Source of the DNA: an uncultured Bordetella sp.
GTDB lineage: Bacteria > Pseudomonadota > Gammaproteobacteria > Burkholderiales > SG8-41
Assembly (NCBI GenBank): GCA_964533495.1
Contig: CAZHJU010000014.1
Location: 2,421-66,420 of the forward strand
Length of the DNA: 64,000 nucleotides
Direction of reading: 5' to 3'
The notes under the pieces were generated by a model. The model was not told the DNA's origin. It saw nothing but the letters and a program-made list of their open reading frames with translations, and did no database searches. The translations under genes were made by a program, and so were the position numbers. Numbering within the stretch: position 1 is the first letter of the stretch; the number at the start of each line of letters is the position of its first letter. Positions 9,260-51,070 of the stretch are shown one piece after another.

Positions 9260-10096
9260 ATGGCTCCGAACCACTGCCCGACACTCGCCGCCCACGGCTG
9301 CAGCATGCCGCAGATGGGCTTTGGCACTTCGCAGCTCGGCGACTGCGGCGACCTTGTCGCCACCGCCCTCCGGCTGGGCTACCGCCACATCGACACCGCC
9401 TGGAAATACGGCTCGGAAAAAGGCGTGGGCGCCGGCATCCGCGCCTCCGGCGTGCCGCGCAGCGAAATCTTCCTCGTCACCAAGGTCTCCCATGAATACC
9501 TGCGGGCCGCCGACTTCGCGCGTTCCGTCGACGACAGCCTGAAAAACCTGCAGGTCGACCATGTCGATCTGCTGCACGTGCACTGGCCCAGCACCGACGG
9601 CGTGCCACTGGCGGAAACCATGACCGCGCTGGCCCGCGCGAAACGCGAAGGACTGACCCGCCACATCGGCGTCGCCAACTTCAACATCGCGCTGCTGGAG
9701 GAAGCCCGCAGAGCCTGCCCGGAACCGCTGGCCGTCCTGCAGGCCGAGTACCACCCCTATCTCGACCAGCGCAGGATCCTCGACTACTGCCTGCAACACG
9801 GCATGATCTTCACCGCCTACTGCCCGCTGGCCCGCGGCCGACTGTTCGGGGATCCCGTCCTGGTGGACATTGCAAAGGAGAAAAGCAGAACCATCGCCCA
9901 GGTCGTGTTGCGCTGGCTCGTCCAACAGGGCAACATTGCACCCATCCCGCGCTCTTCGAATCCGGAACGCATCGCGCAAAACCTCGACGTGTTCGATTTC
10001 ACGCTCACCGCCGACGAGATGAAACGCATCCATGCGCTGGCACGGCCCGACGGCCGCATTGCCAATCCGGCGGGCCGTGCGCCGGCGTGGGATTGA
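9260..10096 (+). CDS. Aldo/keto reductase (DkgB-like)
   Basis: [51 protein letters not shown]. Confidence 0.93.
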
Positions 10097-10146
10097 ACCC
10101 GGCAGCACCGCAGCACACTCAAGCAGTCAAAATACGGAGGAAGTTC

Positions 10147-11130
10147 ATGAAAATCAGCACGTTCGCAAGCTCGGCCGCGATTGCCGTCCTGTCGCTGGCC
10201 GCCGCGCAGGGCGCTCATGCGCAAGGCGCGTTTCCGTCAAAAAGCATGGTGATGATCGTCCCCTACACCCCGGGCGGCTCCGCCGACGCCATGAGCCGGG
10301 CCATCGCCACCAGGCTCGGCACGGCTCTGGGACGCAACATCGTCGTCGACAACCGCCCCGGCGCCAGCGGCATGATCGGCACCGAGATGGTCACCAAGGC
10401 CGAACCCGACGGCCACACGCTGCTCGGCCACACGTCGTCGTACCCGGCCACGGCCGCGGTGCGCGCCAAGCTGCCCTTCGATCCCGCCAAGGCCATCATC
10501 CCCATCGGCATGACGGCCCGCGCGCCGATGCTGTTCGCCATCCACCCGTCGATTCCCGCGAAAAGCGCCAGGGAACTGATCGCGCTGGTGAAAAAGGATC
10601 CGAAAAAATACTTCCTGAACTACGGCTCCTCCGGCGCCGGCGGCAACAACCATTTCGCCGGCTCGCTGTTCGCCGCCGCGGCGGGCATCAAGATGCAGCA
10701 CGTGCCGTACAAGGGCATCTCGATGGCCGTCACCGCCATCGCTTCCGGCGAAGTCGAAGTCGTGATTGCCAGTTCCTCGGCCCTGCTGCCGCAGCGGGAT
10801 TCGGGCCGCATCCGCATCCTCGGCGTGACCAGCGCGGAAAAATCACCGCTGTTCCCGGACCTGCCGACCATCGCTTCGCAGGGCGCGCCGGGTTACGAAT
10901 ACGAACTGTGGTGGGGCACCTTCGCGCCGGCCGGCATGGCGCCCGACCGGCTCAAGTTCCTGTACTCGGAAATCCAGAAGATCGTCGTCGGCGCCGACAT
11001 GAAAAAATTCCTCGATCTCCAGGGCGCCGGCGTCTGGCAACTGCCGATGGCGCAGCTGCCGGAGCTGCTGCCGAAGGAAATCGCGCGCTACAGGAAAGCC
11101 GCGCAACTCGCGGGCATCGAGCCGCAATAA
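10147..11130 (+). CDS. Bug/TctC tripartite tricarboxylate transporter substrate-binding protein
   Basis: Signal peptide; IVPYTPGGSAD, VDNRPGASGMIG, HVPYKG; C-terminal AGIEPQ. Confidence 0.93.
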   Translation: MKISTFASSAAIAVLSLAAAQGAHAQGAFPSKSMVMIVPYTPGGSADAMSRAIATRLGTALGRNIVVDNRPGASGMIGTEMVTKAEPDGHTLLGHTSSYPATAAVRAKLPFDPAKAIIPIGMTARAPMLFAIHPSIPAKSARELIALVKKDPKKYFLNYGSSGAGGNNHFAGSLFAAAAGIKMQHVPYKGISMAVTAIASGEVEVVIASSSALLPQRDSGRIRILGVTSAEKSPLFPDLPTIASQGAPGYEYELWWGTFAPAGMAPDRLKFLYSEIQKIVVGADMKKFLDLQGAGVWQLPMAQLPELLPKEIARYRKAAQLAGIEPQ

Positions 11131-40347: not shown

Positions 40348-41376
40348 TCAGGCTTTCGGAAAACGCGGCGTGGCGCGCAAATCGAAACCCGCGGTCAGCC
40401 GCAGATGCCCTGCGGCGTCGACCGCAAGCGCCTCGGGCGCCCCCGCCCCGGCGGCCAGCGCCGGCATCGCGTCCGCCCCCATCACCATCATCGCGGCGCC
40501 CAGGCCGTTGAGATCGGCGCCGCCGCGCGACACCAGGGTCACGCCGCGCAGGCCGCTGCTCGGATAGCCGGTGCGCGGATCGAGGATATGGTGGTAACGG
40601 CGGCCATCGCGCTCGAAAAACCGCTCATAATCGCCGGACGACGTCACCACGCCGTCGTTCATCTCCAGCACGCCGAGCAGCGACTCCGGATGCAGCGGAT
40701 CGCGGATGCCGACCCGCCACGGCCGCCCCTGCAACCGGCCGAGAGTCAGCACGTCGCCGCCGCCGTCGATCATCGCGTTGGCAATGCCGTGATACCGCAG
40801 GATCTGCAGTCCGGCCTGCAGGATGGGCAGCTTGGCGATGCCGCCGAGATCCAGGCGCATGCCGGGCCGCCTCAGGTAGGCCGTGCCCTGCCGCTCGTCC
40901 AGCACGACATCGCGGTAATCCACCAGCGCGCGCTGGCGCCGCAGCGCCTCCGCCGCGGGTGCGGCACCGCCGCCGCCCTCGAAACGCCAGCCGTCATAGG
41001 CCCCGACCGTGATGTCGAAGGCGCCGCCGCTGAGCTCCGACACCGAGCGGGCGCGCAGCAGCACGGCCATGACTTCGGGCGCGACCGCGACCGCATGGCG
41101 CCCGGCCGCGTGCTGCAAGGCGGCGACCGTGCTGTCCCCGCGGTAGCGGCTCATCAGCCTTTCGAGCCGCGCCATGCCCTCGAAAGCCGCCGCGAGAGCA
41201 TGGTCGGTTTCGCCGGGATGCATGCCTTCGGCGACGATGCCGATCCGCGTGCCCATCAGCGCGCGCGAACCGCGCCGCACCGCCGGGTCGGCGAACCGCG
41301 CAGGCACCAGCAATCCCGCGGCGACGAGGCTGAACCCGCCGATAAAGCGGCGGCGGCTGATGGCGCTGAAGGACAT
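40348..41376 (-). CDS. nosX: FAD:protein FMN transferase (ApbE/NosX)
   Basis: Tat motif SRRRFIG, LMGTRI, GAFDITVG, DLGGIAK, TSSGDYERF, YHHILDPRTG. True start at 41376 inside track ORF 40348..41865. Confidence 0.9.
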   Translation of the reverse strand: MSFSAISRRRFIGGFSLVAAGLLVPARFADPAVRRGSRALMGTRIGIVAEGMHPGETDHALAAAFEGMARLERLMSRYRGDSTVAALQHAAGRHAVAVAPEVMAVLLRARSVSELSGGAFDITVGAYDGWRFEGGGGAAPAAEALRRQRALVDYRDVVLDERQGTAYLRRPGMRLDLGGIAKLPILQAGLQILRYHGIANAMIDGGGDVLTLGRLQGRPWRVGIRDPLHPESLLGVLEMNDGVVTSSGDYERFFERDGRRYHHILDPRTGYPSSGLRGVTLVSRGGADLNGLGAAMMVMGADAMPALAAGAGAPEALAVDAAGHLRLTAGFDLRATPRFPKA

Positions 41377-41384
41377 GGCCGGGC

Positions 41385-41777
41385 TCAGCGCGACTGGGCC
41401 ACCATGAAATCGACGGCCGTCTTGACCTCGTCGTCGCTGAGCGAGGCGCTGCCGCCGCGCGGCGGCATCAGGCCTTTCGCGCCGGTATAGCCTTCGATCG
41501 CGTGCTTGTAGAGCACGTCGTTGCCCTGCGCGATGCGCGGGGCCCAATCCCCCTTGTCGCCGGGCTTGGGCGCGCCCGCCACCCCCGCCGCATGACACAG
41601 CGCGCAGGTCTTGCCGTACACGGACTTGCCGGCGGAATTGTCGGCGGCCACGGGCGCGGGCGGCGCGGCGGGAGCGGCAGCGGGCTTCGGCGCGGACGCC
41701 GGCGCCTGCTCCTGTCCTCCGCAGGCGGCCAGCGCGATGCCACAGGCGACCAGCAGGATTCCGTTTCTGAAGTTCAT
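41385..41777 (-). CDS. c5-type monoheme cytochrome c, predicted lipoprotein (NosC-like)
   Basis: AAGGAG RBS; MNFRNGILLVACGIALAAC lipobox; Ala/Pro linker; CALCH, GAP..GD...W.PR, MPPRGG. Confidence 0.88.
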   Translation of the reverse strand: MNFRNGILLVACGIALAACGGQEQAPASAPKPAAAPAAPPAPVAADNSAGKSVYGKTCALCHAAGVAGAPKPGDKGDWAPRIAQGNDVLYKHAIEGYTGAKGLMPPRGGSASLSDDEVKTAVDFMVAQSR

Positions 41778-41892
41778 GTCGTGCTCCTTGAAATATCGGG
41801 GTTGGCTTGGATTGATTCGGCTTGACTCGAATTGAATTGCGATTGACGACACCGGGCTTGCGCACTCCGGATGGAACGCATCCTATCCTTTA

Positions 41893-41915
41893 AAGATGCA
41901 TCACTTATGCATCTT
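41893..41915. promoter_or_regulatory. NsrR-type operator
   Basis: AAGATGCAT-CACTT-ATGCATCTT, a perfect 9-5-9 palindrome matching the GATGYAT-N5-ATRCATC NsrR consensus; nsrR lies at 50343-50783. Confidence 0.75.
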
Positions 41916-41926
41916 ATGAAGCTTGT

Positions 41927-41940
41927 TTGAGCCAGATCAA
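41927..41940. promoter_or_regulatory. FNR/DNR-type box upstream of nosZ
   Basis: TTGAG-CCAG-ATCAA (one mismatch to TTGAT-N4-ATCAA). A -10-like AACAAT at 41963-41968 would place the box centre near -41.5. Confidence 0.72.
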
Positions 41941-42015
41941 TATCCGCGGCGGCCGGCGCACGAACAATGGGTGCGTCAAACAGGAAATCCCAACCCACCC
42001 CGCAAAGGAACAGCC

Positions 42016-43950
42016 ATGGCTGAAAAATCCGGAAAAATCGAAAAACCCGAACCCCCGGCACCCGCAGGCATGGGACGCCGCCGCTTTCTCGGCACCGCCG
42101 CGGTTGCCGGCGCAGGGCTGGCCGCGCTGGCCGGCTGCAACGAAAAACCCGCCGCCGATGCCGGCAAGGGCGCCGCCTCCGCCGGCGGCACGCACGCCGC
42201 AGCGGGCGGCGTGCACCTCAAACCCGGCGAACTCGACAGCTACTACGGCCTGTGGAGCGGCGGCCACACCGGCGACGCCCGCATCATAGGCATTCCCTCC
42301 GGCCGTGAAATCCACCGCATCCCCTGCTTCAATCCCGACCCGCTGATCGGCTGGGGCATCACCAACGAGTCGAAAAAAATCATGGGCACGAAGCCCGACG
42401 GCAGCCTGAAATACACCGTCGCCGACACCCACCACGTGCACGCCTCCTACAAGGACGGCAACTACGACGGCCGCTACGCCTGGATCAACGACAAGATCAA
42501 CAGCCGCATCGCGCGCCTCCGCCTCGACTACTTCGTCTGCGACAAGATCACCGAACTGCCCAACGTGCAGGGCTTCCACGGCATCTTCCCGGACAAGCGC
42601 GATCCGGTGGACGAAAAAATCAACTACACGACGCGCGTGTTCTGCGGCGGCGAGTTCTCGATCCCGCTGCCCAACGCGCCGATCGAGGACCCGTCGAAGT
42701 ACCGCTCGCTGTTCAGCTGCGTCGATGCCGAATCGATGGAAGTGCGCTGGCAGGTGATGATCGACGGCAACTGCGACCTCACCGCGACCTCCTTCGACGG
42801 CAAGCTCGCGGCCACCAACCAGTACAACACCGAGATGGGCGCCAAGTACGAGGACATGATGTCGGCCGAGCGTGACGCCTGCCTCTTCTTCAACATCGCC
42901 CGCATCGAAGCCGCGGTGAAGGCCGGCAAATTCAGGACCATCGGGACGTCCAGGGTGCCGGTCGTCGACGGCACCGCCGAAGCCAACAAGGATGCCAGGA
43001 CCGCGCTCGTCGCCTATGTCTCGGTGCCGAAGAACCCGCACGGGGTCAACGCCAGCCCCGACGGCAAGTACTTCATCTGCGCCGGCAAGCTGTCGCCGAC
43101 CGCCACGGTCATCGAACTGTCCAGGGTGCTGGAATGGTTCGACGGCAAGCTGGAGAAAATCGACGATTCCATCGTCGCCGAGGTGGAACTGGGCCTTGGC
43201 CCGCTGCACACCGCCTTCGACGGCCGCGGCAACGCCTACACCACGCTGTTTCTCGACAGCCAGGTGGTCAAGTGGAACGTCGAGGCCGCCATCAAGTTCA
43301 CCAAGGGCGACAAGACGGCCAAATACGTGGTCGACCGCATCGACGTGCATTACCAGCCGGGACACATCAACGCCACCCAATCCGAAACCATGGCCGCCGA
43401 CGGCAAGTACCTCGCCGTGGGCTGCAAGTTCTCGAAGGATCGCTACCTGCCGGTCGGGCCGATGCACCCGGAGAACGAGCAGCTGATCGACATCTCCGGC
43501 GACAAGATGATCCTGCTCGCCGACCACCCGGTCCGCCCGGAGCCGCACGACTTCATCATCTTCAAGCGCGACCTGGTCAAACCGAAGCAGGTGTATGACA
43601 TCGATCACTCGCCGCTGGCGATCAAGGACGCCAAGGAGTCCGGGGTGTTCCGCCAGGGCAGGAAGGTCACGGTCAAGATGACCTCGCTCGCGCCGTCCTT
43701 CAGCCTGCGCGAATTCAAGCTCAAAAAAGGCGACGAGGTCACCCTGATCCTCACCAACCTCGACAAGATCGAGGATCTGTCCCACGGCTTCGCCATCCCG
43801 AACTACAACATCAACTTCGTGGTGAACCCGCAGGAAACCGCCTCGGTGACCTTCACCGCGGACAAGACCGGCGTGTTCTGGTGCTACTGCACGCATTTCT
43901 GCCACGCACTCCACCTGGAAATGCGCTCGCGGATGATCGTGGAAGCCTGA
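42016..43950 (+). CDS. nosZ: Nitrous-oxide reductase, clade I (Tat), with lipobox
   Basis: GRRRFLG Tat motif and LAGC; CuZ His motifs DTHH, GFHG, KNPHG, GPLHT, QPGH, EPHD; CuA HGF...CTHFCHALHLEM. Confidence 0.98.
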   Translation: MAEKSGKIEKPEPPAPAGMGRRRFLGTAAVAGAGLAALAGCNEKPAADAGKGAASAGGTHAAAGGVHLKPGELDSYYGLWSGGHTGDARIIGIPSGREIHRIPCFNPDPLIGWGITNESKKIMGTKPDGSLKYTVADTHHVHASYKDGNYDGRYAWINDKINSRIARLRLDYFVCDKITELPNVQGFHGIFPDKRDPVDEKINYTTRVFCGGEFSIPLPNAPIEDPSKYRSLFSCVDAESMEVRWQVMIDGNCDLTATSFDGKLAATNQYNTEMGAKYEDMMSAERDACLFFNIARIEAAVKAGKFRTIGTSRVPVVDGTAEANKDARTALVAYVSVPKNPHGVNASPDGKYFICAGKLSPTATVIELSRVLEWFDGKLEKIDDSIVAEVELGLGPLHTAFDGRGNAYTTLFLDSQVVKWNVEAAIKFTKGDKTAKYVVDRIDVHYQPGHINATQSETMAADGKYLAVGCKFSKDRYLPVGPMHPENEQLIDISGDKMILLADHPVRPEPHDFIIFKRDLVKPKQVYDIDHSPLAIKDAKESGVFRQGRKVTVKMTSLAPSFSLREFKLKKGDEVTLILTNLDKIEDLSHGFAIPNYNINFVVNPQETASVTFTADKTGVFWCYCTHFCHALHLEMRSRMIVEA

Positions 43951-44012: not shown

Positions 44013-46631
44013 ATGACCATGCACAGAATCCTCCCACGACTGCTCCTCGCCGCCGTGCTGCTGATGGCGGCCGGCGCGCGGGCGGCCGGCGGCGCCTACG
44101 AAGCCGAACTGCCCGCGGAAATCAACAGCGCGAAGAACCTCTGCGCAATGGTTCCCTGCGGCAGCGTGTTTCCGGGCGCCGCCTCCTTTTCCGAGCGCAA
44201 GGGCCGGCCGCCCTACGTCGAGGCCTACGGCGAGGCCGATGCCGCCGGCGCCAGGAAGCTGCTCGGCTACGTCATGCTGTCGACCGACATCACCGACACG
44301 CCGGCCTACTCCGGCAAGCCGGTGATCACCCTGATCGGCATGGACACCGAGGGGCGCTACACCGGCGTCAAGGTGCTCAAGCATTCCGAACCCATCCTGC
44401 TGCTCGGCATCCCCGAGTCGGCGCTCGATCAATTCAACGCCCAGTACATCGGCAAGTCGGTCAGGGACCGCATCGAAGTCGGCCCGGACCGCCCGTCCGA
44501 GGACGTGATCGGCGTCGACGCCATCTCCGGCGCCACCGTCACCGTCATCGCCCAGAACCAGGTGATGCATCTTTCCGGTTCGGCGGTGGCGCGGCAGACC
44601 GGCATCATCGCGCCGACGGTGCGGGAGCCCGCGCGATACCAGCTGCGCGGCGCGCGCCTCGGCTGGAACGAGCTGGTGAAGCTCGGCGCGGTGCAGCGGC
44701 TCCGGGTCATGCCCCAACAGGTCGGCCTCGAACGCGGCGCCGACCCTTTCATCGAGCTGTGGTTCGGCGATCTCAATCATCCGGACGTCGCCACGAGCCT
44801 GCTCGGCGCGCGCGGCTACGCCAACCTGCGCGCGAGCCTCGCCGAAGGCGATCACGCCCTGTTCGTGATCCGCACCGCCGGCAGGGAATCCTTCAAGGGA
44901 TCAGGCTTCGTGCGCGGCGGCCTCTACGACCGGGTGCAGGTCAAGCAGGGGGCCGACGCCTTCACCTTCCGCGATCTCGACGCCCTCAACCTCTACGGGC
45001 TCGAGGCCGAAGACGCGCCGCGCTACGACGAATCCGCGATCTTCATCATCCGCGGCGCCGGATTCTCCGCGGCCTACCCCTGGAAGCTCGCCTTCCTCGG
45101 CAACCGCGTCGACCGCGCCACCGGCCACCGCAGCTTCGCCGTGTTCGAATCCGGGCTCTGGCTCGACGCCGGCCTGCTCGCCGGCGGCCGCCCGAAGATC
45201 GAGAAGCCGGTCCCGCCGTGGCTGCGCATCTGGCGGGACCGTGCGCCGGAGATCGCCCTGTTCGTCACGCTGCTCGCCGGCGTCGCCGTGGTCTACGCCT
45301 TCCGCGAACGCCTCACCCGCATGTCCACCCACAAGAACAAGTGGCCGGTGAACGCGTTCAAATATTCGGCCTGGACCGTGAGCATCATCTGGATCGGTTT
45401 CGGCGTCATGGCGCAGCCGTCGATCACCCAGGTGCTCACCTGGTTCCACTCGCTGCTGTTCAAGTGGACCTGGTCGCTGTTCCTGTCCGATCCGTTCATC
45501 TTCGTGTTCTGGATCTTCATCATCGTCACCGTGTTCCTGTTCGGCCGCGGCCTGTTCTGCGGCTGGCTGTGCCCGTTCGGCTCGCTCTCGGAGATGATCT
45601 ACAAGGTCGGTGAAAAAATCGGCCTCAAGCGCTGGCAGCGCAAGCTGCCGCAGCGCGTGCACGACCGCCTGAAATGGGTCAAGTACGGCATCTTCTTCGG
45701 CCTGCTCGCGGTGTCGATGTTCTCGATGGCGCTGGCCGAGGTGCTGGCGGAAGTCGAGCCCTTCAAGACGACCTTCCTCGTCGGCATCGCCAACCGCGCC
45801 TGGCCGTACGGCCTGTTCGTGGCGGTCCTGCTGGGCCTTTCGCTGTTCATCGAGCGCCCGTACTGCAAGTACCTCTGCCCGCTGGGCGCCGCGCTGGCAA
45901 TGCCAAGCACCTTCCGCTGGTTCGGACTGCGCCGCAAGCAGGACTGCAACAGCTGCAAGGCCTGCGCCACCGGCTGCGGCTCGCTCGCCATCGATGCCGC
46001 CGGCCGCATCGACCACCGCGAATGCCTGCACTGCCTCGACTGCATGGTGCTCTACACCGACGTCACCGCCTGCCCGCCGCTGTCGCGCGAGCGCAAGCGC
46101 CGGGAGCGCGCCGGCCTCGCGCTGACGCCGATCGGCCGGGACGGCTACTACATCCCGATCCAGCCGGCGCCGGACGACGCCGCTGCGCGCAAGGCCGCCG
46201 CCGGACCGGATCCGCGCATGCCCACCGACCCGGTGCAGCTGCCCTACATGGAAAAAGCCGGCCTGGCGCGCTGGATCGCGCTCGAGGTGTACGAACACCT
46301 CTGGCCGTGGAGCGCCAAGGGCTGGCACGACCAGCGCGCGCTGCAGATCGCCGGCATTTCGCTCGCCGTCGCCGCCACCGTCGCCTGGCTGCTGGCGATC
46401 AGCGGCAACCTCTCCTCGGGCGCGATCATCGGCTGGTGGTTCGGCTGGAGCGTCTATGAAGTGCTGATCCGCCTGTCGGGACGGCGCTACGTCAAGGACG
46501 GCCCGTGGTGGAAGCGCAACTACCGCCATGCCGGCGTGATGGACATGCTCAGCTACGTCGCCTTCAAGAACCTGCTGATCGGCGCCACGCTGTTCCTGGC
46601 GCTGAAGGCGCTCGACATCCTACCCGGCTAA
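44013..46631 (+). CDS. nosR: NosR/NirI membrane Fe-S flavoprotein
   Basis: Signal/TM, FMN-binding DAISGATVT, CGWLCPFG, YCKYLCPLGA, CNSCKACATGC, ECLHCLDC. Start 44013 or 44019. Confidence 0.95.
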   Translation: MTMHRILPRLLLAAVLLMAAGARAAGGAYEAELPAEINSAKNLCAMVPCGSVFPGAASFSERKGRPPYVEAYGEADAAGARKLLGYVMLSTDITDTPAYSGKPVITLIGMDTEGRYTGVKVLKHSEPILLLGIPESALDQFNAQYIGKSVRDRIEVGPDRPSEDVIGVDAISGATVTVIAQNQVMHLSGSAVARQTGIIAPTVREPARYQLRGARLGWNELVKLGAVQRLRVMPQQVGLERGADPFIELWFGDLNHPDVATSLLGARGYANLRASLAEGDHALFVIRTAGRESFKGSGFVRGGLYDRVQVKQGADAFTFRDLDALNLYGLEAEDAPRYDESAIFIIRGAGFSAAYPWKLAFLGNRVDRATGHRSFAVFESGLWLDAGLLAGGRPKIEKPVPPWLRIWRDRAPEIALFVTLLAGVAVVYAFRERLTRMSTHKNKWPVNAFKYSAWTVSIIWIGFGVMAQPSITQVLTWFHSLLFKWTWSLFLSDPFIFVFWIFIIVTVFLFGRGLFCGWLCPFGSLSEMIYKVGEKIGLKRWQRKLPQRVHDRLKWVKYGIFFGLLAVSMFSMALAEVLAEVEPFKTTFLVGIANRAWPYGLFVAVLLGLSLFIERPYCKYLCPLGAALAMPSTFRWFGLRRKQDCNSCKACATGCGSLAIDAAGRIDHRECLHCLDCMVLYTDVTACPPLSRERKRRERAGLALTPIGRDGYYIPIQPAPDDAAARKAAAGPDPRMPTDPVQLPYMEKAGLARWIALEVYEHLWPWSAKGWHDQRALQIAGISLAVAATVAWLLAISGNLSSGAIIGWWFGWSVYEVLIRLSGRRYVKDGPWWKRNYRHAGVMDMLSYVAFKNLLIGATLFLALKALDILPG

Positions 46632-46632
46632 A

Positions 46633-47910
46633 ATGCAAAAAATAATTAATAATCAAATACTTATAGTATCGTTCGCAGCGGCACTGCTCGCCGCCACGGG
46701 CGCCGCCGCCGCCACCCTCAACATCGCCCCCGGCAGCGACCTGCAGCAGGCGATCGCGCAGGCCCGGGCCGGCGACGTGCTCGAAATCGGGCGCGGCCTC
46801 TACACCGGCAATTTCCGCATCGACAAGCCGCTCACGCTGCGCGGCGTCGGGCGGCCGACGATCAGCGGCGGCCTGACCGGCAGCACGCTCACCGTCGAGG
46901 CGCCCGACGTCACCGTCGAGAACGTCATCGTGCGCGACTCCGGCGACAGCCTGAAGAACCAGAACGCCGGCATCTACGTGCGCCCCGGCGCGCACCGCTT
47001 CGCGCTGCGCAACTCCGACCTCACCTACAACCTGTTCGGGCTGTGGATCGAAAAGGCCGACGACGTCGTCATCGAGCGCAACATCATCACCGGCAAGCGC
47101 GACTACAATTCGCCGCTGCGCGGCAACGGCATCCAGCTCTACAACACCACCGGTGCGCGCATCATCGGCAACAACATCGGCTTCGTGCGCGATGCGCTCT
47201 ACGTCGACGTCTCCCACCGGGCGGTGTTCCGCGGCAACAGGCTCCACCACAGCCGCTATGGCACCCACTACATGAACTCCTACCACAACCTGTGGGAGGA
47301 CAACGACAGCTACGCCAACCGCGGCGGCCTCGCGCTGATGGAGGTGCGCGACCAGGTCATCCGCAACAACCGCGCCTGGAACAACAGCGACCACGGCATC
47401 ATGCTGCGCACGCTGCAGGACTCGCTGGTCGAGGGCAACGTCATCGCGGGCAACAACCGCGGTTTCTTCATCTACGACGTCGAATACGCCACGCTGCGCG
47501 GCAACCTCGTCATCAACAACCGGGTCGGCGTGCACCTCTCCGCCGGCTCCACCCGCAACAGCGTCGAGCGCAACGACTTCATCGCCAACCGCGAGCAGGT
47601 GCGCTACGTCGGCGCGAAGGACGAGGCGTGGGGCGTGAAGGAGGGCAACTACTGGGGCAACTATCTCGGCTGGGACAGCGACGGCGACGGCCGCGGCGAC
47701 CAGCCCTACGAAGCCAACGACATCGTCGACCGCCTTCTGTGGCGCCACCCGGGCGCGCGGCTGCTGATGGCAAGCCCGGCGATCCAGGCCCTGCGCCTGG
47801 CCGCGCAGCAGTTCCCGCTGCTGCGCGTGCCCACGGTCGTCGACAGACATCCGCGCATGCGCCCGCACAATCCCGACTGGAGCCGCTGGCATGGCCGCAT
47901 CACCGACTGA
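46633..47910 (+). CDS. nosD: NosD periplasmic copper-insertion protein (beta-helix)
   Basis: GNGIQLYN, HSRYGTHYM, GNYW..Y.GWD.DGDG.GD.PY, LLMASPA. Confidence 0.96.
   Translation: MQKIINNQILIVSFAAALLAATGAAAATLNIAPGSDLQQAIAQARAGDVLEIGRGLYTGNFRIDKPLTLRGVGRPTISGGLTGSTLTVEAPDVTVENVIVRDSGDSLKNQNAGIYVRPGAHRFALRNSDLTYNLFGLWIEKADDVVIERNIITGKRDYNSPLRGNGIQLYNTTGARIIGNNIGFVRDALYVDVSHRAVFRGNRLHHSRYGTHYMNSYHNLWEDNDSYANRGGLALMEVRDQVIRNNRAWNNSDHGIMLRTLQDSLVEGNVIAGNNRGFFIYDVEYATLRGNLVINNRVGVHLSAGSTRNSVERNDFIANREQVRYVGAKDEAWGVKEGNYWGNYLGWDSDGDGRGDQPYEANDIVDRLLWRHPGARLLMASPAIQALRLAAQQFPLLRVPTVVDRHPRMRPHNPDWSRWHGRITD
46651..46663 (+). promoter_or_regulatory. IHF consensus site AATCAAATACTTA within nosD codons 7-11
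   Basis: Perfect consensus, identical to 16463-16475, preceded by AAAAAATAATT. Confidence 0.65.
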
Positions 47911-48823
47911 AGCCGCCGCCCCGGCGATCGAACTGCGCGGCGTGCGCAAGCACTTCGGCGCGCTGTGCGCCGTCGACGGCATCGACCTGCGCGTCCGCGC
48001 CGGCGAGATCCTCGGCCTGATCGGCCGCAACGGCGCCGGCAAGAGCACCCTGTTCAAGCTGATGCTCGGCCTGGAGCAGCCCACCGCAGGCGAAGTCAGC
48101 GTCGCCGGCGTGCCGGTGGCGGGCCCGCGCTTCCGCGACACCCGCCGCCGCATCGGCTACCTGCCCGAGAACATCGCGCTCTACGACAACCTGAGCGGCC
48201 TCGAGACGCTGCGCTTCTTCGCGCGGCTGAAGGGCGCGCCTCTGCACCAGTGCGACACCCGGCTGGCCGAGGCCGGGCTTTCGGAGGCCGCCGGCCGGCC
48301 CGTGCGCGAATACTCCAAGGGCATGCGCCAGCGCCTCGGCATCGCGCAGGCGCTGCTCGGCTCGCCCCGGCTGCTGTTCTTCGACGAGCCCACCAACGGC
48401 CTCGATCCGCAGGCGATCCGCGACTTCTACCGCCGGATCCACGCGCTACGCGACGGCGGCGCCACCATCGTCATCAGCTCGCACATCCTCGCCGAGCTGC
48501 AGCAGCGCGTCGACCGGCTGGCCATCATCGCCGACGGCCGGCTGCGCGCCAGCGGCAGCGTCGCCGAGCTGCGCAGCCGCACCGCCATGCCCGTCGTCTT
48601 CGCGCTGGAACTCGCGCCCGGGGACATCGCCGCGACGGCGGCCAGCCTCGCCGACGTCGAAAGCCTCGGCGTCACTGCCACCGACCGCGGCCTCGACCTC
48701 GCCTGCCCGGCGGCGCAGCGCGCCACGGTGCTGGAAGCGGTGCTCCGGCTCGGCCCGCGCGTGCGCAACCTGCAGATCAACGAACCCTCGCTCGAAGACA
48801 TGTTCTTCGGCCTCGAGCGCTGA
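47891..48823 (+). CDS. nosF: ABC ATPase NosF
   Basis: GRNGAGKST Walker A, YSKGMRQRLG, FFDEPTNGLDP; follows nosD. Confidence 0.95.
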   Translation: MAASPTEAAAPAIELRGVRKHFGALCAVDGIDLRVRAGEILGLIGRNGAGKSTLFKLMLGLEQPTAGEVSVAGVPVAGPRFRDTRRRIGYLPENIALYDNLSGLETLRFFARLKGAPLHQCDTRLAEAGLSEAAGRPVREYSKGMRQRLGIAQALLGSPRLLFFDEPTNGLDPQAIRDFYRRIHALRDGGATIVISSHILAELQQRVDRLAIIADGRLRASGSVAELRSRTAMPVVFALELAPGDIAATAASLADVESLGVTATDRGLDLACPAAQRATVLEAVLRLGPRVRNLQINEPSLEDMFFGLER

Positions 48824-48827
48824 CGCC

Positions 48828-49643
48828 ATGAGCCCCATCAACCTGCGGACCATCGCCGGCAAGGAACTGCGCGACCGCATGCGCAACCACTGGGTGCTGG
48901 CCATCGCGCTGGTGTTCACCGCCTTCTCGCTGATCATCGCCTACTTCGGCGGCGCGCAGCAGGGCACCATCGGCTTCCGCTCGCTCGAATTCACCATCAC
49001 CAGCCTGGTGAGCCTGGTGATCTACCTGATCCCGCTGATCGGGCTGCTGCTCGGCTTCGACGCCATCGTCGCCGAGCGCGAGCGCGGCTCGCTCGACCTG
49101 CTGCTGACCCTGCCGCTGACGCCGCTCGACCTGCTGCTCGGCAAATATCTCGGCCTCGCCGCCGCGCTGGCGCTGTCCACGCTGCTCGGCTTCGCGCTGG
49201 TCGCGGGCCTGCTCTACATCCAGTTCGGCAACGCGGCGCTGTTCCACTTCGGCGGCTTCATGCTGAGCGCGCTGCTGCTGGGCATGGCGTTCCTCAGCAT
49301 CGCCGTGCTGATCTCGGTGATCGCGCGCGACCGCACCCGCGCCTCGGGCATGGCCGTCGCGGCATGGTTCGCCTTCGTGCTGGTGTTCGACCTGCTGCTG
49401 CTCGGCGTGATGGTCGCCAGCGATGGCCGATGGGGCGGCGGCGCGCTGGCCTACCTGCTGCTGCTCAACCCCGCCGACGTCTTCCGCATCCTCAACCTGT
49501 TCTCCGTCGAACAGGCCGCGGCCGCCTACGGCCTCACCCAACTGCTGCCCCCGGCGCTCGCCCGCGCCCCGGTGATGGGCGCGGCGATGGCGGCCTGGAT
49601 AATCCTTCCCCTGATGATCGCCAGCTGGAGATTCAAACGATGA
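48828..49643 (+). CDS. nosY: ABC permease NosY
   Basis: IAGKELRD..RNHW, YLIPLIGLLLGFDAIV.ERERGSLDLLL, LLLNPADVFRI. Confidence 0.95.
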   Translation: MSPINLRTIAGKELRDRMRNHWVLAIALVFTAFSLIIAYFGGAQQGTIGFRSLEFTITSLVSLVIYLIPLIGLLLGFDAIVAERERGSLDLLLTLPLTPLDLLLGKYLGLAAALALSTLLGFALVAGLLYIQFGNAALFHFGGFMLSALLLGMAFLSIAVLISVIARDRTRASGMAVAAWFAFVLVFDLLLLGVMVASDGRWGGGALAYLLLLNPADVFRILNLFSVEQAAAAYGLTQLLPPALARAPVMGAAMAAWIILPLMIASWRFKR

Positions 49644-50236
49644 CCGACACGACCCGCGTCAAGACTGCATGCTCCTGCGGCACCTCCCACACCCGTCCCG
49701 ACAGCACCGGGCGCCGCGCGCTGCTCCGGTTCGCCGGGCTCGCCGCGCTCGGCTTCGCCGGCGGCCTCGCTGGCTGCGACTCCGGCGGCAGCGGCCAGGC
49801 CCGCGGCCCGGCCGAGATCGGTCCGGGCTCCGCCTGCCATCTCGACGGCATGCTGCTCGCCGAGTACCCCGGCCCCAAGGGCCAGATCCTCGTCGCCGGC
49901 CTCGTCGAGCCGATGTTCTTTTGCGACACGACGGAACTCTTCAACACCGTGCTCGCCGGCGAGCAGGCGCTGCGGATCGAAGGCATCTACGTGCAGGACA
50001 TGGGGCAGGCCAAGTGGGAAGAGCCCCGCGGCCACTGGTTCGACGCGCGCCAGGGCTGGTACGTGATCGGCAGCAAGCGCCACGGCTCGATGGGCCCCAC
50101 CATCGCCAGCTTCGCGCAGGAAGCCGACGCCCGGCGCCACGCCGCCGACTACGGCGGCAAGGTGCTGAAGTACGAGCAGATCACCCGCGAGATGGTCGAC
50201 CTCAGCGGCGGCGCGCTGCACGACCAGCGGATGTAG
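49640..50236 (+). CDS. nosL: Copper chaperone NosL (Tat lipoprotein)
   Basis: GRRALL, LAGC lipobox, CHLDGMLLAEYPGPKGQI, YVQDM, GSMGP. Confidence 0.95.
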   Translation: MTDTTRVKTACSCGTSHTRPDSTGRRALLRFAGLAALGFAGGLAGCDSGGSGQARGPAEIGPGSACHLDGMLLAEYPGPKGQILVAGLVEPMFFCDTTELFNTVLAGEQALRIEGIYVQDMGQAKWEEPRGHWFDARQGWYVIGSKRHGSMGPTIASFAQEADARRHAADYGGKVLKYEQITREMVDLSGGALHDQRM

Positions 50237-50342: not shown

Positions 50343-50783
50343 CTAAGCCTTGCGCCGCGCGGCGGCGCCCGGCCCGACACCGCCCGCCACCTCGGCCAGC
50401 GTGACGCCGTCGAGTTCGGCCATGAATTTCGCCAGCCCGCGCCTGAGCACCGCCTTCAGGCGGCAGACGTCGCCGATGCGGCAGGTGTTGCGCGCGGCAT
50501 CGAAGCATTCCACCAAGGTCATGTCTTTCTCGGTCCTGCGAACCACGTCGCCGATGGTGATCCCGGCGGCCGGCTTCATCAGCCTGAGCCCACCGCCGCG
50601 GCCACGCGTGGTCTTGAGCAGCCCGAGTTCGGCGAGCGTCATCACGATCTTGGTGAGGTGCGTGCGTGAAATGCCGTGGACCCTGGCGATTTCGCTGATG
50701 GTGGCCGGTGCGCTCCGCTCCGCCGTGGCGGCGCAGTACATCAGCACCCGCAGGCTGTAGTCCGTCCATTGCGTCAGATGCAC
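50343..50783 (-). CDS. nsrR: Rrf2-family NO-sensing repressor
   Basis: MHLTQWTDYSLRVLMY, ISEIA..HGIS..HL.K, RGRGGG; three Cys in VECF...CRIG.VCRL; GTG start. Confidence 0.85.
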   Translation of the reverse strand: MHLTQWTDYSLRVLMYCAATAERSAPATISEIARVHGISRTHLTKIVMTLAELGLLKTTRGRGGGLRLMKPAAGITIGDVVRRTEKDMTLVECFDAARNTCRIGDVCRLKAVLRRGLAKFMAELDGVTLAEVAGGVGPGAAARRKA

Positions 50784-50857: not shown

Positions 50858-51070
50858 TCAGCGGGAAGTCCTGCGCAGCGGAATCACTTCCGCCTCCGGC
50901 TGCAGCGAGAACTTCACCGCGCCGGGCCAGTCGATGCGTTCGATGACACGGTTGTTGTTGGCCGCCCAGAACCGCGCGGTGTCTTCGGTCATCGGCGTGC
51001 GCACCAGGCGCCAGCGCGTCTTGCCCGAACGGTCCTTCTCCTGCACGCGCCACTTGTAGAGGGTTTCCAT
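50858..51070 (-). CDS. Small hypothetical protein (70 aa)
   Basis: METLYKWRVQEKDRSGKTRWRLVRTPMTEDTARFW...; fills the gap between nsrR and the GST gene with normal codon usage. Confidence 0.55.
   Translation of the reverse strand: METLYKWRVQEKDRSGKTRWRLVRTPMTEDTARFWAANNNRVIERIDWPGAVKFSLQPEAEVIPLRRTSR

Follow-up and report, generated by a model that had tools for sequence, protein, structure and literature searches.

No biological sink for N2O is known other than nitrous-oxide (N2O) reductase, and an organism with nos but no nir is regarded as a net consumer of N2O. To predict when such organisms act, one has to know the signals that switch nos on. In Pseudomonas, Paracoccus and Rhodobacter, NO-dependent activation of nos is of the DNR/NnrR type. 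We analysed a stretch of 64 kb of DNA (hereafter the window) in which an N2O-reductase cluster is preceded by a perfect palindrome and followed by a gene of the Rrf2 family. This locus raises the question of whether the palindrome is an operator of the NO-sensing repressor NsrR, whether the Rrf2 protein is that repressor, and which of the two divergent promoters at the palindrome it would control.

A clade I nos cluster with a divergent cytochrome c gene

A Tat-type NosZ, NosR, nosDFYL and ApbE/NosX, the components by which a clade I nos cluster is recognised, are all present in the window. The genes were assigned as follows.

40348..41376, minus strand: nosX, ApbE-family FAD:protein FMN transferase (NCBIfam ApbE match under the equivalog cut-off; Tat-like signal)
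41385..41777, minus strand: small c-type cytochrome with a lipoprotein-like signal (Pfam Cytochrome_CBB3 and Cytochrom_C, CxxCH; ATG at 41777, 130 aa)
42016..43950, plus strand: nosZ, Tat-dependent (clade I) nitrous-oxide reductase (TIGR04244, 977.9 bits for a cut-off of 625; ATG at 42016)
44013..46631, plus strand: nosR, with a C-terminal membrane extension of ~170 aa (NCBIfam NosR, 552 bits over residues 51-696; Pfam FMN_bind and Fer4_5)
46633..47910, plus strand: nosD (ORF; tblastn orthologs in all nos loci)
47891..48823, plus strand: nosF, ABC ATPase (ORF; orthologs in nos loci)
48828..49643, plus strand: nosY, permease (ORF; orthologs in nos loci)
49640..50236, plus strand: nosL, copper chaperone lipoprotein (ORF; homologous to what stands in the place of nosL at every nos locus)

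The NCBIfam search returned no match for nosL. The cytochrome encoded at 41385..41777 is the probable electron donor to NosZ. Its gene is divergent from nosZ not only in the window but also in two members of the same genus, the closest relative G035 (MAG TGS_PRO44) and G060, and in L003 (Burkholderiaceae MAG CTOTU2289). In the window nosX begins 8 nt past the stop codon of the cytochrome c gene, and this synteny is kept in the same three genomes.

NosR has 872 aa and the NCBIfam NosR model stops at residue 696, the membrane extension corresponding to positions 46100-46631. Similarly long NosR proteins (834-880 aa aligned) were seen at L003, L028, L033-L035 and L042; other Burkholderiales NosR align over ~685 aa.

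A predicted NsrR operator next to an FNR-type box

The cytochrome c gene and nosZ are separated by a spacer of 238 bp, which holds two candidate regulatory sites.

41893..41915, no strand: predicted NsrR operator, AAGATGCAT-CACTT-ATGCATCTT (palindrome, uniqueness, consensus, matrix score, conservation)
41927..41940, no strand: FNR-type box TTGAGCCAGATCAA, common to both divergent promoters (TTGA-N6-TCAA unique in the window; 11-nt gap kept in four genomes)

Positions 41893-41915 read AAGATGCATCACTTATGCATCTT and form a perfect 9-5-9 inverted repeat. The original prediction had described a perfect palindrome 12 bp from an FNR-type box, and this repeat was found, with 11 nt in between and the box starting 12 bp past the palindrome end. 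It had also assigned the palindrome to the NsrR consensus, and the core GATGCAT-N5-ATGCATC indeed fits perfectly the published 23-bp motif gATGyAT-N5-ATrCATc (Rodionov 2005, PMC1274295). Counting against an NsrR operator, the inner TT/AA of the 11-1-11 consensus is unmatched, the spacer of the nos site being CACTT. The palindrome is the sole match in the window with up to three mismatches tolerated, where shuffled sequences lead one to expect 0.01, and the sole match with fewer than four mismatches across the 3.03-Mb genome (65.8% GC). The FNR-type box is likewise the sole TTGA-N6-TCAA within the 64 kb. Both the TTGAT-N4-ATCAA box and a cognate FNR are present, the genome encoding an FNR ortholog (259.9 bits, NCBIfam cut-off 228) with an N-terminal Cys cluster and an E--SR recognition helix. 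No DNR- or NnrR-like protein was evident in the genome, and no NarL/NarP, IHF or Fis site was recognisable at the nos promoter.

An NsrR matrix was derived from 16 boxes adjoining orthologous Rrf2 genes in other Burkholderiales, nos sites being excluded; its consensus is AAGATGCATTTAAAATGCATCTT. The nos site was the top match of this matrix in the genome, with 31.1 bits, followed by a runner-up at 23.4 bits. The genome-wide search for further NsrR sites gave these weaker matches (at most 23.4 bits) in AT-rich islets or inside two porin genes, and none in promoters. Across 1.04 Mb of fetched loci, matches of at least 26 bits were found almost only adjoining nsrR (upstream or divergent region) or at the conserved nos promoters; three further ones lie at L015:368, L022:593 and L023:6555.

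The two porin genes are paralogous and lie beyond the window, 1.6 kb apart (C1:133186 and C1:134805 of the same genome). Their common coding stretch AAGCCGTATTCnATnTACATGTT resembles an NsrR half-site (17.6-21.6 bits) and was dismissed as a regulatory site, being located inside ORFs.

The Rrf2 protein encoded after nosL

Two small genes follow nosL on the opposite strand.

50343..50783, minus strand: nsrR, Rrf2 family, 146 aa, with Asp8, Cys92, Cys100 and Cys106 (Pfam Rrf2; convergent on nosL)
50858..51070, minus strand: conserved 70-aa ORF, METLYKWRVQEKDRSGKTRW... (immediately 5' of nsrR, codirectional; adjoins nsrR in relatives)

The three-Cys Rrf2 gene convergent on nosL, as first read from the DNA, encodes a protein with three C-terminal cysteines, and nosL ends at 50236; the observation of the palindrome, the FNR box and the Rrf2 gene was confirmed. 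Membership of the family is indicated by Pfam PF02082 (114.7 bits over residues 3-133) and TIGR00738 (106.8 bits, cut-off 73.3). The best match among solved structures was Streptomyces coelicolor NsrR (ScNsrR, 5N07) with 76 bits, compared to 40 bits for IscR. Asp8, Cys92, Cys100 and Cys106 align with Asp8, Cys93, Cys99 and Cys105 of this structure, which are the [4Fe-4S] ligands of ScNsrR (PMC9338935). Orthologs of the gene, with 50-65% identity, adjoin dnrN/ytfE (L002, L009, L012), nnrS (L015, L016), qNor (L015, L025) or narK (L063, L064), with canonical boxes in the spacers. We treat the protein as NsrR because the ScNsrR match, the alignment of ligands and the context of the orthologs all favour it, and the original assignment to NsrR stands in the sense that the protein is NsrR-type by these features. 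The gene is the sole NsrR-like one in the genome, and no NsrR box of its own was found for it.

The neighbouring 70-aa ORF is 94% identical in G035 and 77% identical in G038, another species of the genus, where its order relative to nsrR is swapped. It gave no Pfam match, and no NsrR box was found upstream of it.

Conservation of the operator, the FNR-type box and nsrR

Four of the 159 genomes of the window's family contain nosZ, three of them belonging to the window's genus. In all three nos-bearing members of the genus, i.e. the window, G035 and G060, nsrR is convergent on nosL, and their spacers compare as follows.

Window: operator AAGATGCATCACTTATGCATCTT, 11-nt gap, FNR box TTGAGCCAGATCAA
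G035: operator AAGATGCACCCATTATGCATCTT, 11-nt gap, FNR box TTGAGCCAGATCAA
G060: operator AACATGCATCTATTATGCATCTT, 11-nt gap, FNR box TTGACCCACATCAA

The DNA of G060 is only ~73% identical to the window. A separate lineage, made up of L003 and the metagenome contig L065 (NosZ 85% identical), carries AAGATTCAG-ATGTT-ATGAATCTT in the spacer, followed after 11 nt by TTGACTCAGATCAA. Both half-sites of L003 show the same G-to-T change, and the remaining spacer is unalignable. In L003 nsrR lies directly after nosX on the cytochrome strand, and such a cytC-nosX-nsrR operon would be self-regulated.

Twenty-five upstream regions of nosZ were compared; 24 belong to Burkholderiales of other families, whose NosZ are 65-85% identical, and one is that of the same-genus G035. 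An FNR-type box was present in 23 of the 25. None of the 24 regions from other families had an NsrR-type site above 14 bits, and no Rrf2 gene adjoined nos at the fetched loci outside the window's family. A scan of a metagenome collection for the composite NsrR-N13-FNR element returned a single contig, L065 of the L003 lineage, so that such a pair of sites is a rarity among the metagenomes scanned. Absence from the 24 promoters together with the single metagenome contig thus describes the NsrR site as a lineage-specific extension of a promoter that is generally controlled by FNR/DNR. The co-conservation of box and regulator in related nos clusters, proposed as a check of the original prediction, was borne out by the joint presence of operator, FNR box and nsrR in four genomes. 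These four genomes represent only two lineages, with related nos clusters (NosZ ~85% identical), so part of the conservation comes from common ancestry of the spacer element.

Two further nos loci were looked at individually. The NosZ of L028 (G447, ~245-320), 85% identical over the part that aligns, is one of the closest found outside the genus; at this locus no NsrR box is present and a second FNR-like box, TTGAGCCAGAGCAA, one base off the FNR box of the window, lies 37 nt upstream of TTGACCTAGTTCAA; it looks as if two activator sites replaced the pair of repressor and activator. At L056 (G076, 9914-10300), an NsrR-like Rrf2 gene (…VRGKGGGLRLA…VPCFDPGGVSCAIFQSC…), partly masked by N, lies ~1.1 kb upstream of nosR. 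The nosRZDFYLX-type cluster of L056 is from the same family as the window, its NosZ is 50% identical, and no canonical NsrR or FNR box was seen there.

Origin of the regulator

In a tree of NsrR sequences the proteins of the genus form one supported clade (97/92), which includes those of G038 and G047, two species in which nsrR stands beside the same GST gene without nos; the NsrR of L003 falls outside. A simple story in which nsrR arrived together with nos was rejected, the genus NsrRs being monophyletic with these two nos-less species included.

A second NsrR-type box, AAGATGCATCACTGATGC..., was seen at L068 1501-1523 (G038), L069 1501-1523 (G047) and G060:C133:4967-4989. It precedes napD-napA by ~25 nt, and an FNR-like box, TTGATTTAAGTCAA, stands another 36 nt upstream. 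In the nap promoters of G038, G047 and G060 the order is FNR box, NsrR box, gene, as on the cytochrome side of the spacer here. The NsrR of the genus apparently also gates the periplasmic nitrate reductase; nap is absent from the window's genome. From the clade and the nap boxes, the regulator would therefore be an NO sensor resident in the genus and serving its modules of FNR-dependent N-oxide respiration. The picture shows an operator that appears to travel with the nos spacer and a regulator that would be whichever NsrR the host has. The original prediction of a nos cluster wired to its own NsrR is thus to be amended: nsrR does lie just after nosL, but by origin it is the resident NsrR of the genus, which in sister species also has a napDA operator.

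These data bear on two other explanations of the locus. The Rrf2 protein might sense iron/Fe-S status or redox in the manner of RirA or IscR, and so make expression of the Nos machinery, which needs Fe-S and Cu, follow the availability of metal. Its best NCBIfam score is in fact that of RirA (127.4 bits), marginally above that of NsrR (NF008240, 119.7 bits), and its cysteine spacing, C-x7-C-x5-C, is the same as in RirA. However, both scores remain under their cut-offs (193 and 182, respectively), so that NCBIfam does not decide between the two subfamilies, the shortfall counting against the NsrR assignment as well; ScNsrR is the best solved match with Asp8 kept, and the orthologs adjoin dnrN/ytfE, nnrS and qNor. 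The RirA box is TGA-N9-TCA, whereas the operator here is the NsrR motif, and a separate, IscR-like gene is the one other Rrf2 gene of the genome. RirA/IscR identity was rejected on operator motif, gene context and ligand alignment, and we regard a metal-sensing role as very improbable. Still more improbable, to the point that we give it hardly any weight, is that the palindrome arose by chance or is a relic, without present function, and that its proximity to nsrR is coincidental. AT-rich islets are scattered in the genome and nsrR was already resident beside GST in nos-less members of the genus, as such a coincidence would have it, but only 0.01 matches are expected per window, nsrR adjoins nos in two differing arrangements, and the half-sites and the FNR spacing are kept across spacers that are ~73% identical or unalignable, with a symmetric double substitution in L003. 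We consider it likely that the NsrR repressor whose gene follows nosL uses the palindrome as a working operator, its binding by NsrR and the response to NO being what we infer.

Genes for NO metabolism in the genome

The assembly is 97% complete and contains narK-narG (Nar) and Nos. No cd1 or copper nitrite reductase, NO reductase, globin/Hmp or YtfE was found in it, and an nnrS homolog in the genome is without an NsrR box. Clusters of dnrN(ytfE)-qNor are present in the closest relative G035 (C232, C8) and in the L003 genome (G550:C39:24246-26525; L071-L073 for these clusters), so that their absence from the window's assembly may be of recent date or due to a gap in the assembly. No NsrR box lies within reach of these clusters in G035 and L003, where NO detoxification is probably under another, NorR-like regulator.

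Since nir, nor, hmp and ytfE are lacking in the assembly, nos is the sole credible target of NsrR. One could go further and see in NsrR a regulator stripped down to one operator and devoted to N2O respiration alone. Most of its NO would be supplied by neighbouring denitrifiers or by side reactions of the cell's own nitrate reductase and would act as a community cue that N2O will soon be at hand, with a single FNR dimer driving both promoters and NsrR vetoing only cytochrome c and NosX. We put this full scheme forward tentatively, and as a whole we think it rather less probable than its negation.

Proposed promoter geometry and mechanism

A sigma-70 consensus scan of the spacer detected no promoter, and a search for RNA-seq or metatranscriptome runs matching the region returned DNA metagenomes only. 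Two hexamers were retained as candidates by comparison of the genomes.

41963..41968, plus strand: AACAAT, putative -10 hexamer for nosZ (matching nAnnAT in four genomes)
41880..41885, minus strand: TAGGAT, putative and weak -10 hexamer for cytC-nosX (hexamer beyond the operator)

The window and the genomes G035, G060 and L003 share an nAnnAT hexamer (AACAAT, AAGAAT, GACCAT) 23-28 nt past the FNR box. With this spacing FNR would have the class II (-41.5) geometry for nosZ, and the operator centre would lie near -71. On the other side, 5-13 nt past the operator, TAGGAT is present in the window, G035 and G060 and AAGTAT in L003; FNR would then sit near -61 of the cytC-nosX promoter and NsrR over its -35 element and spacer. 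The operator is on the cytochrome side of the FNR box in all four genomes. On the way from the operator to cytC, in what is presumed to be the 5' leader, there is a short hairpin, GGATGGAACGCATCC (window 41869-41883), which is kept in G035 and not in G060 or L003.

In the mechanism that we propose, a single FNR dimer at 41927-41940 would most likely activate both divergent promoters at low O2, working on nosZRDFYL in the class II manner (~-41.5) and on cytC-nosX from ~-61. Holo-[4Fe-4S] NsrR would bind 11 nt from the FNR site on the cytochrome side, thereby covering the cytC-nosX core promoter, and would also lie on the nosZ promoter at about -71. NO would nitrosylate the cluster and NsrR would leave, upon which the cytochrome that donates electrons and the enzyme that flavinylates NosR could be made and N2O respiration run. 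The resulting logic would be low O2 (FNR) AND NO (NsrR), and N2O consumption would probably be switched on only at low O2 with NO present.

The side of the FNR box on which the operator lies makes cytC-nosX, rather than nosZ, the likeliest direct target, and from this position and the order of sites in the nap promoters NsrR would chiefly repress cytC-nosX. The converse, that the operator acts mainly on nosZRDFYL and not on cytC-nosX, blocking from ~-71 the contacts of RNA polymerase alpha-CTD or upstream DNA on which a class II FNR promoter relies (anti-activation), seems unlikely to us. The conserved -10-like hexamer 23-28 nt past the FNR box would fit class II activation of nosZ, the centre of the operator then falling at about -71. 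In E. coli the FNR-dependent nrf promoter is reported to be down-regulated by NsrR bound upstream (Browning 2010, as cited in PMC8139620 and PMC12285233), and in Magnetospirillum it is nosZ itself that is de-repressed in the nsrR mutant (PMC11014258). A repressor at -71 would nevertheless be a weaker design than one over the core promoter, and in the nap promoters of the sister species the NsrR box is placed between FNR box and gene, as for cytC here. Repression of cytC-nosX and of nosZ are not exclusive effects, and alongside the preferred repression of cytC-nosX an added influence of NsrR on nosZ from its upstream position is possible.

Discussion

We know of no dedicated N2O sensor in these Proteobacteria, where NO stands in for N2O. 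As in DNR/NnrR systems, nos would here be expressed at low O2 in the presence of NO; unlike in those systems, the proposed NO input is through release of a repressor and not through a haem-based activator of the Crp/Fnr type.

NsrR control of nos is rare, with precedent. In Magnetospirillum gryphiswaldense, NsrR binds the nosZ promoter directly, as seen by EMSA and ChIP-qPCR, NO lowers this binding, and nosZ expression is higher in the nsrR mutant (PMC11014258). That organism is an alphaproteobacterium in which NsrR acts broadly, on nap, nir, nor, nos, nitrification and magnetosome genes, whereas here nos is the sole credible operator in the genome. Control of nos by NsrR was also predicted in Photobacterium profundum, and NsrR-regulated nirK/norB were described in Neisseria, Burkholderia and Chromobacterium, such control of denitrification genes being considered a taxon-specific extension of the regulon (Rodionov 2005, PMC1274295); for nirK/aniA and norB it is established in Neisseria. 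The operator consensus of that study is the same as the one found here, but it attributed beta-proteobacterial nos to DNR, whereas the present lineage has FNR and NsrR with no evident DNR/NnrR.

In E. coli, NsrR represses the FNR-dependent nrf and nap operons (Filenko 2007 and Browning 2010, as cited in PMC8139620 and PMC12285233). The arrangement is alike in that an NO-sensing Rrf2 repressor is overlaid on an FNR-dependent promoter for anaerobic respiration, and the sister species of the genus, with their pair of NsrR and FNR boxes before napDA, resemble it further. It differs in that the predicted target here is an N2O-reductase cluster and that one FNR box is common to two divergent promoters. 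What sets this locus apart is the presence, as judged from sequence, of a textbook NsrR operator at a Burkholderiales clade I nos cluster, at a fixed 11 nt from an FNR box, its recurrence in two gene arrangements, and a genome in which nos appears as the regulator's sole credible target.

The locus provides a compact and testable rule for one lineage, FNR AND not-NsrR. It suggests that the NO input to nos, which usually comes via DNR/NnrR activators, can also come from a canonical NsrR operator beside an FNR box.
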